Assembly (NCBI GenBank): GCA_030693235.1
Contig: JAUYBE010000016.1
Location: 101,917-160,059, forward strand
Length of the DNA: 58,143 nucleotides
Source of the DNA: a bacterium
GTDB lineage: Bacteria > Patescibacteriota > Minisyncoccia > UBA6257 > UBA9933
Direction: 5' to 3'
A program made the position numbers and the translations under genes. How positions within the stretch are numbered: the stretch's first letter is position 1; every line of letters starts with the position of its first letter. Below the pieces are notes generated by a model. That model saw nothing but the letters and a program-made list of their open reading frames with translations, searched no databases and had not been told where the DNA came from. Of this stretch, positions 10,892-56,622 are shown piece after piece.

Positions 10892-11053
10892 CTTCTTCCT
10901 CCCTTTCCGGCCATTTGGCCGATTTAAAGTTGTTTATTTGATTTATTTCCTGCTCTGTCCTATATTAAATTATCAAAGGGCTTAATTTCATCCTGAGTTT
11001 GTCGAAGGATTGAAACTACTTTTAAAATAGCATACAATTTTAAAAAAGTCAAG
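10892..11053 (-). repeat. Duplicated promoter/leader module, copy 2 (overlaps the tRNA-Leu promoter)
   Basis: See 10296-10438; plus-strand TTGAAA(11010)-17-TACAAT(11033). Confidence 0.8.
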
Positions 11054-11134
11054 CTCCCGTGGCGGAACTGGAATACGCGCGGCGTTTAGAACGCCGTCCC
11101 GCAAGGGTTAGAGGTTCAAATCCTCTCGGGAGCA
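11053..11134 (+). tRNA. tRNA-Leu(TAG), CCA not encoded
   Basis: Acceptor GCTCCCG/CGGGAGC; anticodon arm CGGCG-TTTAGAA-CGCCG; long variable arm; GGTTCAAATCC. Confidence 0.93.
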
Positions 11135-11189
11135 CAGATCAGAAGCACAAAATAAAATTAACACCAAATGCCAAATAACCAATTAAACA

Positions 11190-11227
11190 TTACTCCAGTA
11201 TCCTGCGATCGTTAGACACTGGAGTAA
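11190..11227. repeat. 38-bp CGATCG-core palindrome, site A
   Basis: TTACTCCAGTATCCTG-CGATCG-TTAGACACTGGAGTAA. Confidence 0.75.
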
Positions 11228-11280
11228 ATTTAAAAAAATGGAAAAAGCTTAATAAAGAAATGGAAATGGAAAACCACATC

Positions 11281-11877
11281 TTAAATTAAATGTTCCAAAC
11301 TTCCGGTTTTGCTAATCTCAAAAATCTCTACAAAATCAACCAATTTCATTTTAAAAAGATCTCCTAAAAATTCTTTGGGAATTTTAACTTTTCCCATCCA
11401 AACGCTTTTTTGAATCATTTTAAATCCCAAATTTACTAAAACCGCTCTCAACCACTCTCTTTTTCTTTTTTCCAATTCTGGAATATCAAAAACCACAATA
11501 ACAAATTTATTATTTCCTTCTTTTAAATAAACCGCTTCTGGCAATCTTCTCTTATTTTGTTCTTTTAGATAAGCGAGTTTTTCTTTTCCTTTTTTGGTTA
11601 AAATAAAAAATCTTTTGTTGTTCTTTTGTTCTTCCCCAATAAGACCGTCCTTCTTCAGATAATAAACCATATTATAATATCTTTGTTTGGCCTGTCTTTT
11701 TAAGTTTCTTTCCATTGACTTTCCAATTCTCTGATTTTGACGCTTGGAAATTTCGTATTGTAATTTGCCATAAGAAGCTCCATAACTAGCGCTTAAAACG
11801 ACATCAAAAAAATCTGTTGCTGTTCCAGCAAAATCTCCGATTACTTCTAATATTTTTACACTAACATCTCCCTTCAT
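11281..11877 (-). CDS. PaaX-like protein (wHTH plus Cas2-like central domain)
   Basis: wHTH 'LKKDGLI...LTKKGK' followed by 'IVVFDIPELEKRKREWLR..L..LGFKMIQKSVW'. Confidence 0.8.
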   Translation of the reverse strand: MKGDVSVKILEVIGDFAGTATDFFDVVLSASYGASYGKLQYEISKRQNQRIGKSMERNLKRQAKQRYYNMVYYLKKDGLIGEEQKNNKRFFILTKKGKEKLAYLKEQNKRRLPEAVYLKEGNNKFVIVVFDIPELEKRKREWLRAVLVNLGFKMIQKSVWMGKVKIPKEFLGDLFKMKLVDFVEIFEISKTGSLEHLI

Positions 11878-11939
11878 AAATAATTCGCAAATAATAAACG
11901 GTATAAAATAAATTGTTTATAATTTTATAATAATCTAAT

Positions 11940-11977
11940 CTACTATGAAGTCAAGCGATCGCATAATGCTGGAGTAA
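11940..11977. repeat. 38-bp CGATCG-core palindrome, site B (overlaps the -35 of the PaaX-like gene)
   Basis: CTACTATGAAGTCAAG-CGATCG-CATAATGCTGGAGTAA. Confidence 0.7.
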
Positions 11978-12000: not shown

Positions 12001-12912
12001 TTATTTATTTCTTCTTCTGCCGTGAAAAGATTGATGCACTTCGCGGAGTTGCTTGTTGGTTAAATGAGTGTAAATTTGGGTGGTGGAAACATTGCTGTGC
12101 CCTAAAAGCTCCTGAACCGAACGCAAATCCGCGCCGCCGACCAAAAGATCGGTGGCGAAAAGATGTCGAAGCGTATGAGGATGAACTTTTTCCGGAATGC
12201 CGGCTTTGCGGCTGTAAAAATCAACCATTCTTTGAATTGCCCGGGGAATAATCCGACCGATTATCTTGGGTAATCTTTTAGCTTTGAGCTTTGAGTTTTT
12301 AGTTAAGCTGACAAAAAGCGCTTCTTCGGCATCCGCTCTTTTATTTAAATAATTCTTGATAGCTTTTTTTGACCGCTCCGAAAGAAAAACTATCCGTAGT
12401 TTCCCGCCCTTGCCACGTACCGAAATCTCGCCGCGATCAATGTCAAAATAACGATTCAAACCGCAAAGTTCGGAAATTCGCAGTCCTGTGGAAAATAAAG
12501 TTTCTAAAATCGCTTTGTCGCGAAGAGAGCGTAAATCAGAGCTGTTTGGCGCGCTCAATAATCTTTCCAGATCTTCGTACTCAATAATTTCAATCTGGCG
12601 CGTCGGAATTTTCGGCAATTCAATCTTATCCGGAGATAAAACCTCAATATCCCGCCTGATTAAATATTTCAAAAAATTCCTTAAGGCGATAATATAATAA
12701 CTTTGGGTATTTTTCTTAATCTCCCTCCTCGCCAAATAAAGCCGAAATTCACGGACGGCCTCCGAAGTAATTTCTTTTTCGCTTTTAATTTTCCCGAAAT
12801 CCAAAAAGGCTTTTAAATAATGCTCGTAGTTCTCGCGAGTCTTAATCGAACGGTTTTTCTCGATTTCCAAATAATTAAGATAATCTTGAAGAAATTTTTG
12901 AATGCTGTTCAT
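12001..12912 (-). CDS. Tyrosine recombinase, XerC/XerD family
   Basis: TGLRISEL, GKGGK, HPHTLRH, LLGHS, TTQIYTH catalytic motifs. Confidence 0.93.
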   Translation of the reverse strand: MNSIQKFLQDYLNYLEIEKNRSIKTRENYEHYLKAFLDFGKIKSEKEITSEAVREFRLYLARREIKKNTQSYYIIALRNFLKYLIRRDIEVLSPDKIELPKIPTRQIEIIEYEDLERLLSAPNSSDLRSLRDKAILETLFSTGLRISELCGLNRYFDIDRGEISVRGKGGKLRIVFLSERSKKAIKNYLNKRADAEEALFVSLTKNSKLKAKRLPKIIGRIIPRAIQRMVDFYSRKAGIPEKVHPHTLRHLFATDLLVGGADLRSVQELLGHSNVSTTQIYTHLTNKQLREVHQSFHGRRRNK

Positions 12913-35802: not shown

Positions 35803-35840
35803 TTAGTCAACACTCGCACGATCGTCTAATTGTTGACTAA
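35803..35840. repeat. 38-bp CGATCG-core palindrome, site C
   Basis: TTAGTCAACACTCGCA-CGATCG-TCTAATTGTTGACTAA. Confidence 0.75.
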
Positions 35841-38820: not shown

Positions 38821-39915
38821 ATGTTAGCGGTTAATAATAAAAAAACAGACTCGGCCGTCGGCCAACTGATAAAAACCGAACCGGATTTGATTTCCTTTCT
38901 TAAAGAAAATGATTTGATGGAAGCGAAACTTTTAAGAAAAACGCCAAAGGCGGTTTATTTTGATTTGGGAAAATTCGGCACGGGCATTGTTTATGGCGTC
39001 GAACTTTTAAACTCCAAAAACATCGTCAAAAGCTTGAACGCCGGAGAACCGATAACCGCTAAAATAATTGACGTTGAAAACGACGAGGGCTATGTCGAAC
39101 TTTCCCTGGCCGGCGCCCACAAACAAAAAAACTGGCAAGAAATCAAGGAAATCAAAGAGAAAGAAGAAGCGCTAACCGTTAAAATTATCGGCGCCAACAG
39201 CGGCGGTCTGGTCGCCAACGTAAATGAAATCAAGGCCTTCTTGCCGGTTTCCCAATTATCGAGCGAACACTATCCGCGAGTCGATGACGGCGACCGAAGA
39301 AAAATCTTGGAAGAATTAAGAAAGCTTGTCGGCCAAGAAATAAAAGTTAAAATCATTGATTTTAATCCGCGCGCCGATAAATTAATCATTTCCGAAAGGG
39401 GCGTTATGGAACAAAATATTAAAGAACTTTTGAATCAATACAAGGCCGGCGATATTATTAATGGCGTCGTTTCCGGCATCGCCAATTTCGGAGTCTTCGT
39501 TCGTTTTGTCGACCAGCCGGCGATTGAAGGAATGATTCATATTTCCGAAATCGACCATCGCCTGATCGACGCTCCGAAAGAAGCCGTCGAAATCGACGAA
39601 GAAGTCAAAGCGAAAATCATTGAAATAAAAGATGGTCAGGTTTTTCTCTCGCTTAAAGCCCTAAAATCCAACCCGTGGGAAACCGCTGCCGAGAAATTCA
39701 AAGAAGGCCAGGAAGTTGGCGGCGCTGTTTATAAATACAATCCGTTCGGCGTTTATATTAATTTAGAGCATAACCTCCAAGGATTGATTCACGTGGCTGA
39801 ATTCGGCAGTCAGGAAGAAATGAGAAAGAAATTGGAAATCGGCAAAAAACATCATTTTATTATTGAATCAATAAAACCGGAAGAGAAAAGAATTCTTCTG
39901 AAATTGAAAAAATGA
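38821..39915 (+). CDS. rpsA: Four-S1-domain RNA-binding protein (ribosomal protein S1)
   Basis: Repeated S1 motifs (AFLPVSQL, FGVFV..GMIHISE, GLIHVAE). Confidence 0.85.
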   Translation: MLAVNNKKTDSAVGQLIKTEPDLISFLKENDLMEAKLLRKTPKAVYFDLGKFGTGIVYGVELLNSKNIVKSLNAGEPITAKIIDVENDEGYVELSLAGAHKQKNWQEIKEIKEKEEALTVKIIGANSGGLVANVNEIKAFLPVSQLSSEHYPRVDDGDRRKILEELRKLVGQEIKVKIIDFNPRADKLIISERGVMEQNIKELLNQYKAGDIINGVVSGIANFGVFVRFVDQPAIEGMIHISEIDHRLIDAPKEAVEIDEEVKAKIIEIKDGQVFLSLKALKSNPWETAAEKFKEGQEVGGAVYKYNPFGVYINLEHNLQGLIHVAEFGSQEEMRKKLEIGKKHHFIIESIKPEEKRILLKLKK

Positions 39916-39925
39916 TGCCTTTGGC

Positions 39926-39952
39926 AAAGCCTTGACACTGTCAGGGTTTTTT
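39926..39952 (+). terminator. Terminator hairpin containing a TTGACA
   Basis: AAAGCCTTGACA-C-TGTCAGGGTTTTTT. Confidence 0.6.
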
Positions 39953-40161
39953 ATAATAATTTAATTAACTTGTGGCTTTCCCCTGATTGGCTGGGCGCGA
40001 TTGTGAAGAAAATCATAAGAGGTTATCGACGCGATTGCGAAGAAAGTCGCAAGAAGCACATTAATAAAAATTTAGAAAAAGGGGGTGAAAAATCAATTTT
40101 AGTTAGTTAAGGAAAATTTTTTATATTAACAATTTCACCAAAATAGAATAAGGAGAAATTC

Positions 40162-40395
40162 ATGGAACCAGCTAATGGGAGAGGCGAAAATCTGGTCAGA
40201 ATCAGAATCAAGGACGCTCCGGAAACAAGATGTTGCCCGAAATTGCACAAGTTTATAGGCATGACACGAAACGCAATCGCTACGCCGGCAGGACTTTATG
40301 TTTTTTATTTTACCGCCTCAAATGGAAATGGATTTGGCGGCATAATAACCGAGCCGCATCAGATTGCGTCGCATTTGGTAGAAGTACTCTCCTAA
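40162..40395 (+). CDS. Hypothetical protein
   Basis: AAGGAG SD; followed by hairpins and a terminator (40481-40519). Confidence 0.5.
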   Translation: MEPANGRGENLVRIRIKDAPETRCCPKLHKFIGMTRNAIATPAGLYVFYFTASNGNGFGGIITEPHQIASHLVEVLS

Positions 40396-40595
40396 ACCTA
40401 TGGCGGGCGTGGCCTTACCTCGAGAGCGCGCCGTAGTCGAGAGCAATAAAGGTCCCTCCTACCTTTAGCTCTTGCTTTTGGGCAGAGTTCTTTCTTCAAG
40501 AAAGAGCTCTGCCTTTTTTATTTTTTCAGTTAAAGGCTGATTCGCCTCGGGCGAAAAATAATCTTAAATTAATTAAATTTTTATATTCTGATATT

Positions 40596-40633
40596 TTACT
40601 ATAGTATCTCACGATCGTAGGATATCATAGTAA
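40596..40633. repeat. 38-bp CGATCG-core palindrome, site D
   Basis: TTACTATAGTATCTCA-CGATCG-TAGGATATCATAGTAA. Confidence 0.75.
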
Positions 40634-40705
40634 ATTAAAAACAAACCAAATAAATCTAAAAAGTAGAAATTTGACAGCCGATTAAAAATTACTATAATTT
40701 ATAAG

Positions 40706-42544
40706 ATGAAAACCTTGTCAAAAAATGTTTTTTGGGCGATTACAACGCTTCTTTTAATAGCGTTTATTTTTTCGTTCTTTTACGCCGAACAAAAACAGCC
40801 TGTGGTTTTAAGCATTGACCAACTGGTTTTAAAAATTAACAGCGGTGAAATTTCAAAAATTATCGTCAACGGCAATAATTTGGAAATTGAACTGAAAAAT
40901 AACGACAAGGCGGTTTCCAAAAAAGAAACCGAAGCCGGACTTTCGGAAACTTTAAAAAATTTCGGCGTTAATCCCGAAGCGCTTCAAAAAGTTAATCTGG
41001 CAATCAAGGAAGAATCTGGTTTCCGCTACTGGGCGAGCATTCTTATCCCCTCTCTTTTGCCGCTTCTTATTATCGGCGTCTTTTTATGGTTGATGTTCCG
41101 CCAGGCCAAAACCGGAATGAGCCAGGCCTTCACTTTCGGCAAAGCCAATATTAAACTTTTTTCCCAATTCAAGGACCAAATTACTTTCAAAGACGTTGCT
41201 GGACTGAAAGAAGCCAAAGAAGAATTGCTGGAAGTGGTTGATTTTTTGAAAAATCCGAAAAAATATCTGGAAATCGGCGCTAAAATCCCCAAAGGAGTTT
41301 TGCTTTTTGGCGCGCCGGGAACGGGAAAAACACTGCTTGCGCGCGCCGTAGCCGGCGAAGCCAATGTGCCGTTTTTTCATATTTCCGGTTCGGAATTTGT
41401 GGAAATGTTTGTCGGAGTTGGCGCCAGCAGAGTCAGGGATTTATTCCAAACCGCCAAAAAAGCCGGTCGGTGTATTATTTTTATTGATGAAATCGACGCC
41501 GTCGGCCGCGAGCGCGGCGCCGGCTTGGGAGGCGGAAACGACGAAAGAGAACAAACTCTTAACCAAATCTTGGTTGAAATGGACGGCTTTGAAAGAAACG
41601 ACGAAAGAATAATTTTGGCGGCGACCAATCGCCCGGATGTCTTGGATTCGGCGCTTTTGCGCCCCGGCCGATTTGACCGCCGGATTATTTTGGACTTGCC
41701 GGACATTAATGACCGCGAAGAAATTTTGAAAATCCACAGCCGCGGAAAAATTTTATCCAAAGATATTAATTTAAGAAAAGCCGCGGAGCGAACTCCGGGA
41801 TTTTCCGGAGCGGATTTAAGCAATTTAATGAACGAAGCGGCGCTTTGGGCCGCCAGAAAAAACCGAAAAGAAGTTGTCCAGCAGGATATTTTTGATTCAA
41901 TTGAAAAAGTTTTGCTCGGTCCCGAGCGCCGAAGCCGAGTTTTATCAGCGAAAGAAAAAGAAATCATCGCTTATCATGAAGCCGGTCACGCCTTAGTGGC
42001 GGCCAGCCTGAAAAATGCCGATCCGATCCATAAAGTTTCCATCGTCGCCCGCGGCCGGGCCGGCGGTTATACTTTAAAACTTCCGATTGAAGAAACTTAT
42101 CTGCGAACCAAATCGCAATTTATGACCGATTTATCCATGATGCTCGGCGGTTATATCGCCGAAAAAACGACTTTTGGCGATATTTCTACCGGCGCTTCCA
42201 ATGATCTACAGAACGCTTCCGAATTAGCGCGGAAGCTGGTCACTAAATTCGGGATGAGCGAAAAACTCGGGCCGATTACTTACGGCAAAACAGAAGAATT
42301 GGTTTTCTTGGGCCGCGAAATCACCGCCGGAAAAAATTATTCCGAAAAAATCGCGGGGGAGATTGACAAAGAAGTCAAAGCCCTAATTGACAAAGCCTTT
42401 GAAACCGCCAAAAAAATCATTATTTCCCGAAAACACGTTCTCAAAAACATCGCTCAAGAATTAATCGAAAAAGAAACCCTGGAAAGAGAAGCATTTGAAA
42501 ATCTGATAAAAGGATTTAAACTTAAGCCGATAGCGATTCAATAA
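40706..42544 (+). CDS. ftsH: ATP-dependent zinc metalloprotease FtsH
   Basis: Two TM helices, [29 protein letters not shown]. Confidence 0.97.
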
Positions 42545-43774: not shown

Positions 43775-43812
43775 TCAGTCAACAGTCGCGCGATCGCGCA
43801 ATTGTTGACTAA
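43775..43812. repeat. 38-bp CGATCG-core palindrome, site E
   Basis: TCAGTCAACAGTCGCG-CGATCG-CGCAATTGTTGACTAA. Confidence 0.75.
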
Positions 43813-56584: not shown

Positions 56585-56622
56585 ATAGTCAATAGTCTCA
56601 CGATCGCGAGAGTGTTGACTAA
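56585..56622. repeat. 38-bp CGATCG-core palindrome, site F
   Basis: ATAGTCAATAGTCTCA-CGATCG-CGAGAGTGTTGACTAA. Confidence 0.75.

Follow-up and report, generated by a model that had tools for sequence, protein, structure and literature searches.

A 58,143-nucleotide stretch of DNA from an ultra-small bacterium of groundwater (the window; positions 101917-160059 of contig C4 in genome G000, an assembly of 610,819 bases in 18 contigs, rated 100% complete) carries a small gene enclosed by two 38-bp sites that share the central hexamer CGATCG. What ties this gene, which encodes a winged helix joined to a Cas2-like domain and which we call mini-PaaX, to the sites on either side of it? An earlier note on this DNA saw a mobile cassette, moved by exchange at the CGATCG core through its own product or a neighboring Xer recombinase, and perhaps autoregulated through the same site. 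Comparison with relatives (labeled G for genomes, L for extracted loci and C for contig numbers) leads us to another answer: this is a real, conserved protein-plus-palindrome system rather than a recombinase-driven gene cassette. With a little more belief than doubt, we favor a protein that works with its own long palindromes, through binding, autorepression at the upstream site and a spread of palindromes resembling that of repetitive extragenic palindromic (REP) elements. We found no published work, supplementary files aside, that links PaaX or Cas2-like proteins to such palindromes in these bacteria.

Mini-PaaX genes and their palindromes

The gene (11281..11877, minus strand; 198 amino acids) is the only open reading frame (ORF) of at least 40 amino acids between the two sites, as the earlier note had it. 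Site A (11190..11227), 53 bp past the stop codon, is a 38-bp palindrome of the form 16+CGATCG+16 with the sequence TTACTCCAGTATCCTG-CGATCG-TTAGACACTGGAGTAA; its arms are complementary at 12 of 16 positions, with no mismatch among the outer 10, and its predicted hairpin has -20.2 kcal/mol (z -6.4). Site B (11940..11977), 62 bp 5' of the start codon, keeps this register about its CGATCG; pairing, however, is limited to 7 of the 16 arm positions, so that the common geometry once ascribed to A and B extends to the register and not to palindromy. B is a half-palindrome: the centre and the gene-distal arm are retained, and the gene-proximal (left) arm resembles the class-1 arms described below (8-12 of 16 positions identical, against 7-8 of 16 for the arms of site A). 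Its right arm matches a site A arm at 13 of 16 positions, and 'hybrid', the word first used for site B, is a fair description. Both sites contain CGATCG-N7-CTGGAGTAA, which with up to two mismatches is found four times in the window (0.08 expected; none of 100 shuffles reaches four) and, genome-wide, only at those four places.

The gene-proximal arm of B also holds, next to the CGATCG centre, a -35-like TTGACT. It forms part of a promoter-like stretch on the minus strand, TTGACT-16-TATTAT (11927..11954), recognized in a consensus scan (10 of 12 positions; a consensus match only), and the proposal that site B contains the gene's -35 stands on that footing. A 96% relative (L114) keeps site A with two arm changes and shares the hybrid site B with TTGACT intact; the promoter-like stretch differs there at four positions, all outside the hexamers.

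The bracket is a rule of the family. A protein search of 40 relatives found homologues in 22 of 41 genomes, G000 counted. At 31 homologous loci from 23 genomes, 24 have sites with shared arms on both sides, six have a site on one side and one lies at a contig end. Among 20 metagenome loci, nine have both sites, six have one and five have none, four of these five being short or partial and the scan having taken CGRYCG centres only. The consistent flanking that a check of PaaX-like homologues was expected to reveal is thus present. Measured at 28 bracketed loci, the median distance between site and gene is 31 bp on the side of the start codon (start codons being approximate) and 28.5 bp on the side of the stop codon, and the flanking centres lie a median of 700 bp apart. 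Arms vary by genome and by paralogue. The centre is mostly CGATCG; CGACCG/CGGTCG, CGGCCG, CCATGG, CTATCG and CTCGAG are also seen. An example of the last is L135 (G013:C1), where palindromes with TTAGTCAAATTA arms at 1356-1401 and 2191-2242 bracket a mini-PaaX gene; a single difference, mirrored between the arms, separates these two copies.

In the 611-kb genome G000, 20 of 90 CGATCG sites centre a 38-bp palindrome (at least 11 of 16 arm positions paired), whereas other self-complementary hexamers centre at most four each (for instance, four of 616 for ATTAAT). Chance as the origin of the pattern is ruled out by the shuffles and by this specificity of the centre. With centre variants included, the total is about 21 sites. 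The base flanking the centre is R at left and Y at right, and on average palindromy extends beyond the 38 bp only to positions 17-18 (0.64 and 0.46; background about 0.3). Arms fall into class 1 (TTACTATRATATC; five copies, including a site D in the window), class 1b (TACTATCCTA; three copies), class 2 (TTAGTCAACA; eight copies, three in the window) and class 3 (TTTAGTAAT; three copies). Site A is a local variant of class 1, as is half of site B. Within copies, an excess of arm symmetry is seen in class 2 of G000 (0.67 versus 0.48, p 0.01) and in none of classes 1, 1b and 3 of that genome. A scan for 10-mer arms with one mismatch gave mostly noise in this AT-rich genome; it also revealed a half-site at C3:20391.

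Gene and arm class go together. G000 carries three mini-PaaX paralogues, each with a different arm class on both sides: the C13 paralogue has class-2 sites, one of them centred on CGACCG, and class 3 accompanies the C3 paralogue, as a site downstream and a half-site upstream. In both half-site cases of this genome, it is the gene-proximal arm, in the region that must hold the promoter, that has diverged. Eight further genomes have two paralogues, and each paralogue has its own arms. The window protein is probably also the partner of classes 1 and 1b, since its orthologues in G019, G018 and G008, at 58-65% identity, are accompanied by class-1 or class-1b-like arms. The host bacteria cannot be cultured on their own and are very poor in regulators; the module offers matched protein-site pairs, three of them in G000, that are directly testable in vitro.

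The protein and its proposed action

In the mini-PaaX protein, N-terminal helices precede a winged helix (about residues 58-111), which is followed by a Cas2-like domain (about residues 120-192). Pfam recognizes PaaX_M (PF20803) at residues 123-192 with 43 bits against a cut-off of 24 (E 5e-11), as well as Cas2 (28 bits, E 2.3e-6). The NCBIfam cas2 profile TIGR01573 scores 33.6 bits, above its cut-off of 24.5; the PaaX profile TIGR02277 gives 24.4 bits, far under the 264.55 required, so that the full-length equivalog score is not reached, and the alignment is collinear with residues 41-133 of that profile. For the N-terminal winged helix, set against PF07848, Pfam gives only sub-threshold matches to HTH_45, PadR and DUF4364. 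PaaX_C (PF08223) has no match in the protein, whose chain stops at residue 198, directly past the Cas2-like domain, nor anywhere in the G000 genome.

An AlphaFold model based on 29 homologues (mean pLDDT 86, pTM 0.60) places a ferredoxin-like C-terminal domain after the helices and the winged helix. Foldseek ranks E. coli PaaX 8a39 first (E 2.5e-3) and Cas2 chains next. VIA-align pairs the model with Cas2 chains at Z 7-8.2, with residues 106-175 of PaaX 8a39 at Z 7.8 (rmsd 2.8, 70 residues aligned) and, over the winged helix (about residues 61-111), with AspA and F93 at Z 5.8-6.3; these Z values are middling and do no more than agree with the hidden Markov model (HMM) results. A search of the Protein Data Bank (PDB) with the single protein sequence returned insignificant winged-helix matches only. 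The relation to PaaX is based on Pfam, NCBIfam and the fold. PF20803 is present in all 29 aligned homologues scanned, which are 19-65% identical to the window protein, and nine residues are invariant among them (G97, F130, D131, P133, R140, R144, L147, S158 and V159); D131, P133, R140, R144, S158 and V159 fall within the Cas2-like domain.

With Cas2 the protein shares the fold, an HMM score above the cas2 cut-off and the signature FDIPE...R..LR...QKSVW. Unlike Cas2, it is fused to a winged helix and has neither cas1 nor an array beside it: cas1 (PF01867) has no match in the genome, rated 100% complete, and a window-level check, not a genome-wide CRISPR finder, met near the gene only the two repeats 750 bp apart that enclose it. 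A CRISPR relic is ruled out by the lack of both. As mini-PaaX passes the NCBI cas2 cut-off, annotation pipelines will call it Cas2, a systematic mislabel that our analysis corrects.

The nearer precedent is PaaX itself, the phenylacetyl-CoA-responsive repressor of E. coli and Pseudomonas (8a39, 3l09, 3kfw), in which a winged helix is likewise followed by a Cas2-like PF20803 domain. According to a review, the E. coli PaaX operator is TGATTC(N27)GAATCA, 39 bp in all, and the Px promoter of PaaX itself is repressed by PaaX, which hinders RNA polymerase there (PMC9493321). The operator span given there is close to the 38 bp of the sites described here, one of which covers a -35. The differences are that mini-PaaX lacks the PaaX_C effector domain, that it adjoins tRNA-Leu and xer instead of paa genes, and that its sites, palindromic throughout around a conserved CGATCG centre, bracket the gene and are dispersed at gene ends.

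We propose that this truncated PaaX-type protein, probably as a dimer, most likely recognizes the long palindromes, which span about 38 bp. Specificity would be set by the outermost 10 bp or so of each arm, which differ from paralogue to paralogue, and the family-wide R-CGATCG-Y centre would probably be read by an invariant face of the Cas2-like domain. Since site B covers the -35, the protein probably shuts off its own promoter there; the autoregulation suggested from the first fits this position, with the promoter known by consensus. The downstream copy A sits past the stop codon. Outer half-sites about 38 bp apart, read by a dimer, with B over the -35, fit the PaaX operator span. Among the mechanisms considered, binding and autorepression are the best supported, and we infer both from the arrangement of sites and gene.

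The dispersed copies, for their part, recall REP elements and their REP-associated tyrosine transposases (RAYTs). As described in three reports, RAYT genes are single-copy genes flanked by their own dispersed palindromes and are inherited vertically (PMC3337134, PMC5581495, 10.1101/2021.07.10.451892). In this respect the mini-PaaX pair behaves in a similar manner: each repeat class has a single gene, which its repeats flank, solo copies are spread to the 3' ends of unrelated genes, and inheritance is mostly vertical. The two systems share the single gene per repeat class, the flanking palindromes, the solo extragenic copies near gene ends and long vertical inheritance. They differ in that mini-PaaX has no match to HUH/Y1 (PF01797), the defining feature of a RAYT, in the low copy number (about 21 in G000 and up to about 24 elsewhere) and in the repeat, here a single perfect 38-bp palindrome and not a REP doublet.

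A phyletic link between gene and sites speaks for this reading; it was assessed with a covariance model, R1, built from 58 palindromes, a strong match being a best E below 1e-4. Twenty of 41 genomes have strong matches, and 19 of these carry PF20803; by domain, the shares are 19 of 24 genomes with PF20803 and one of 17 without (G031), for a Fisher p of 3.4e-6 whose strength is overstated, the relatives not being independent. Several results weigh against the reading. In 17 of the 41 genomes, the training sites of R1 adjoin mini-PaaX genes, so that matches there arise partly by construction; among seven gene-bearing genomes outside the training set, only two have strong matches, and three others use different centres (CGACCG/CGGTCG, CGGCCG or CTCGAG). 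G031, which is 95% complete, has about six CGATCG palindromes (12 strand matches, for example C5:26802-26839) and no match to PF20803 or to the family profile, which makes these orphan sites. On the side of the protein, a PDB profile search retrieved MarR, PadR and Cas2 chains and no PaaX chain at E<=1. On the side of the sites, folding gives no hairpin for B (-3.4 kcal/mol, against -20.2 for A). Finally, differences between flanking copies are often mirrored and complementary: 21 are, against 11.4 co-located in shuffles that assume even variability along the arm, and one shuffle in 2000 reaches 21. The two sites of L116 differ at five positions, all mirrored, and both are perfect palindromes. 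Because selection for binding by one protein fails to explain mirrored differences, these suggest a hairpin or cruciform state, or arm-to-arm copying, neither of which belongs to a plain operator picture.

What remains informative in the phyletic link is the near-absence of R1 matches from genomes that lack the gene. R1 yields up to 48 strand matches per genome, or about 24 sites when halved. On 150 other genomes of the phylum, 32 of which contain PF20803, two match at E<=1e-4 (G090 and G129, both with the gene), in a run that scored 44 candidates per genome, recovered 12 of 35 known G000 matches and says little.

There is also a bolder possibility, which we hold to be unlikely. The Cas2-fold domain may be more than a means of dimerization and may drive a system akin to REP/RAYT but of another fold: by recognizing the palindrome as a hairpin or cruciform and nicking or bending it at the CGATCG centre, mini-PaaX would copy, symmetrize and occasionally relocate the palindromes, and its own gene with them. 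Catalysis would be compatible with the invariant Asp, Arg and Ser residues, which do not demonstrate it. If true, this reading would mean a new class of repeat-maintaining protein, and a free-living Cas2 relative that handles palindromic repeats alone. A protein that copies or maintains palindromes would represent a second, unrelated solution to the REP/RAYT lifestyle, and would bear on how the Cas2 fold came to act on palindromic repeats.

Solo copies at gene ends

Position classes are our own assignments on a simple ORF map. They place 13 of the 21 sites of G000 between tandem genes, six between convergent genes and none between divergent genes, with one inside rnhB and one unclear; in G024, seven of 12 sites are tandem, four convergent and one divergent. 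Taken together, convergent sites outnumber divergent ones by 10 to one in the two genomes (p 0.0024 against base shares), and 14 of 20 tandem sites are nearer the upstream stop codon (one-sided binomial p about 0.06). Solo copies in the window are site D (40596..40633), of class 1, 72 bp 5' of ftsH, with a hairpin of -12.7 kcal/mol; and three of class 2, located between the convergent rpsT and pnp (35803..35840, with TTAGTCAACA arms), between a convergent UPF0102 gene and tsaE (43775..43812), and 3' of an R3H-domain gene (56585..56622). The neighbors of solo sites are unrelated housekeeping genes. In G000, they include alaS, ftsH, pfkB/tatD, ychF, fmt, cca/murI, gyrB, gatB, rpsT/pnp and tsaE, as well as spoU, pgm and mnmA/cobO; in G024, recO/dsbA, rpmA/rplI, rnhA and trxB/rplS.

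Could the solo palindromes be operators, and mini-PaaX an ordinary repressor with a regulon of adjoining genes? The PaaX precedent agrees with such a view, and a few sites lie at promoter distance, not only D but also those 69 bp before alaS and 120 bp before gyrB. However, the ten sites between convergent genes stand where promoters are not expected, against one divergent site; one palindrome lies inside rnhB; and the neighboring genes are housekeeping genes unrelated to one another. Nor are 10 copies identical over 38 bp, as described below for G024, an outcome of selection on operators. We consider a regulon quite improbable.

The same positional bias to stop codons and convergent pairs speaks for punctuation at gene ends, whereby the palindromes, bound by protein or folded as RNA hairpins, would serve as two-way roadblocks, terminators or 3'-end stabilizers, and the bracket would insulate the regulator from read-through. 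Palindromes function in both directions, their hairpins are stable (-20.2, -12.7 and -10.7 kcal/mol; z -6.4 to -3.5), mirrored differences preserve arm pairing, and particular gene ends carry solo sites, with differing arms, in more than one genus. Yet no T-run follows the palindrome hairpins, and the genome has ordinary intrinsic terminators, made of GC-rich hairpins followed by T-runs. Mismatches in the arms have no wobble bias either, G-T numbering 44 and A-C 40 with strands not oriented. Punctuation as the explanation of the system seems to us rather unlikely. Rfam finds no known RNA family at A, B or D, only three tRNAs passing its gathering scores in the window, and gives no match at E<=0.1 in 39900-40720. 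Within that interval, we noted a GC-richer stretch without convincing ORF (40160-40530), between an S1-domain gene and site D/ftsH, which ends near 40478-40530 in a terminator-like hairpin with a T-run.

How did the copies arise? Ten of the 12 sites of G024 are identical, perfect 38-mers, and the other two differ by changes mirrored in both arms. To judge by their sequences, the solo palindromes arose by copying and not by convergent evolution; REP-like copying is, at this level, shown by the pattern of the sites, and mini-PaaX may be the agent of copying and may act at the solo sites. At L030 (376-1260; G032:C67), the ORF-free DNA 5' of a mini-PaaX gene holds four CGATCG palindromes in the space of 900 bp. 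The one at L030:1223 is an exact hybrid, with the left arm of L030:376 (16 of 16 positions) and the right arm of L030:511.

One class-2 palindrome, G000:C11:40810-40847 (L044:4311-4348), is in frame inside rnhB, which encodes RNase HII, in a linker. This linker is seven amino acids longer in G000 than in the 15 orthologues without a larger insert, among 16 aligned; the gene of G009 (L075) has about 48 extra residues at the same linker. The copy does not represent a clean 38-bp insertion. The palindromes also matter for assembly and annotation, since in some relatives they lie near contig ends and one, as here, is read as coding sequence.

A classical Y1 transposase (RAYT or IS200-type) could also have spread the palindromes as its own REP elements, with the mini-PaaX gene merely lying among them. 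G000 has a single Y1_Tnp-like ORF (C17:226273-226506, a partial match in a 138-residue open frame), and in G008 a Y1 gene adjoins a mini-PaaX gene. However, Y1_Tnp is missing from 11 of the 20 genomes with strong palindrome matches, including the four richest (G027, G024, G006 and G032), and its association with the palindromes is weak (nine of 20 versus four of 21 genomes, p 0.10). No CGATCG palindrome lies beside the C17 ORF, which has only a 14-nt inverted repeat just upstream, and arm classes follow mini-PaaX paralogues. A classical RAYT as the partner is therefore very improbable, Y1 tracking the palindromes so poorly. The Y1 gene of G008 is IS200-like (L034:459-1196; G008:C16) and stands directly 5' of the mini-PaaX paralogue that precedes grpE, with short GACGTC-centred palindromes nearby.

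Movement of the unit

The unit is flanked, as the earlier note described, by tRNA-Leu and a Xer-type recombinase. On the left, tRNA-Leu(tag) (11053..11135, plus strand; ARAGORN and Rfam) is convergent with the mini-PaaX gene and also borders the unit in G019, G008, G005 and L114. On the right lies the recombinase gene (12001..12912, minus strand; Pfam Phage_integrase, 1.6e-38). In the cassette model, the unit would excise as a circle carrying one palindrome and integrate at another through strand exchange at CGATCG, driven by Xer or by its own product. Three loci with alternative states lend the model some substance, and the empty and filled alleles sought at this locus do exist. Between tRNA-Leu and xer, G001, of the same genus, has neither gene nor palindrome, and 10 bp separate the tRNA from the stop codon of xer; G024 has one palindrome and no gene; G000, G019 and G008 are filled; and G005 has a divergent paralogue with CTATCG-centred palindromes. 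Between ychF and the gene of a 522-residue membrane protein, a solo class-1 site in G000 corresponds to site-gene-site in G007 (flanking protein 50% identical, E 3e-150). The trxB locus is filled in G000, G017, G022 and L127 and solo in G024, whose orthologue (53% identical) adjoins relA between two identical palindromes.

These states, read from the sequences, indicate that units have been gained, lost or moved, and that solo sites coincide with places filled elsewhere. Hybrid sites, namely B and L030:1223, would also be expected of exchange, and in sequencing run X10, examined like the other runs as contigs, one contig joins 11140 to 12047 and skips the unit; at 85% likeness, however, this joint probably comes from another organism resembling G001. 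The position beside xer persists in ten loci (G000, G019, G008, G005, L114-L117, L119 and L122), down to 46% protein identity, and a relative of about 95% has an identical layout in four groundwater runs from four studies, which argues that movement is rare. Loss of a unit to one palindrome needs only ordinary recombination between two 38-bp repeats. Exchange between existing sites conserves their number and cannot yield 10 identical copies. Between tRNA-Leu and xer, the solo site of G024 is built on TTAGTCA arms, whereas the gene present there in relatives goes with class-1 arms. The proximal arm of site B may have diverged simply to hold the -35, and the upstream half-site of the third paralogue shows the like. 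Movement of the cassette thus does occur, rarely; as the explanation of the system, the cassette model strikes us as improbable, and the part of the original proposal that survives is the existence of empty, solo and filled states, not frequent movement.

The proposed role of Xer fares worse. An xer orthologue is present in all 41 genomes searched, and palindromes adjoin it at four of 30 such loci. Conversely, only four of the 31 genome loci of mini-PaaX are next to xer, and these form one syntenic lineage; other units adjoin trxB, uvrD/ksgA, grpE, relA, tpiA, serS and ychF. Xer-driven exchange is not supported: the recombinase is a housekeeping neighbor, and its action on the palindromes has no support.

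The dif site, on which such a role would be modeled, occurs once per replicon and consists of inverted arms around a short centre; elements called IMEX integrate at it. The unit resembles these systems in its inverted arms at a 6-bp centre, its place beside xer and one hybrid-looking flanking site. It differs in having at least 21 sites per genome, 16-bp arms that vary by paralogue and most units far from xer. Identity with a dif/Xer site is rejected on the 20 CGATCG palindromes, plus variants, in 611 kb and on the 26 of 30 xer loci without a site.

Two side observations concern the same genome. A class-1b palindrome (G000:C11:25885-25922; L043:7986-8023) lies about 690 bp 3' of another tyrosine recombinase gene, the second of the genome (L043:8609-9424, minus strand), and the interval holds only small ORFs; the layout recalls the xer-site B-gene order, without a mini-PaaX gene. 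Tandem arrays of the 7-base unit GAATTCT occur at about 28206 in the window (G000:C4:130122), at C17:50484 and at C17:130126.

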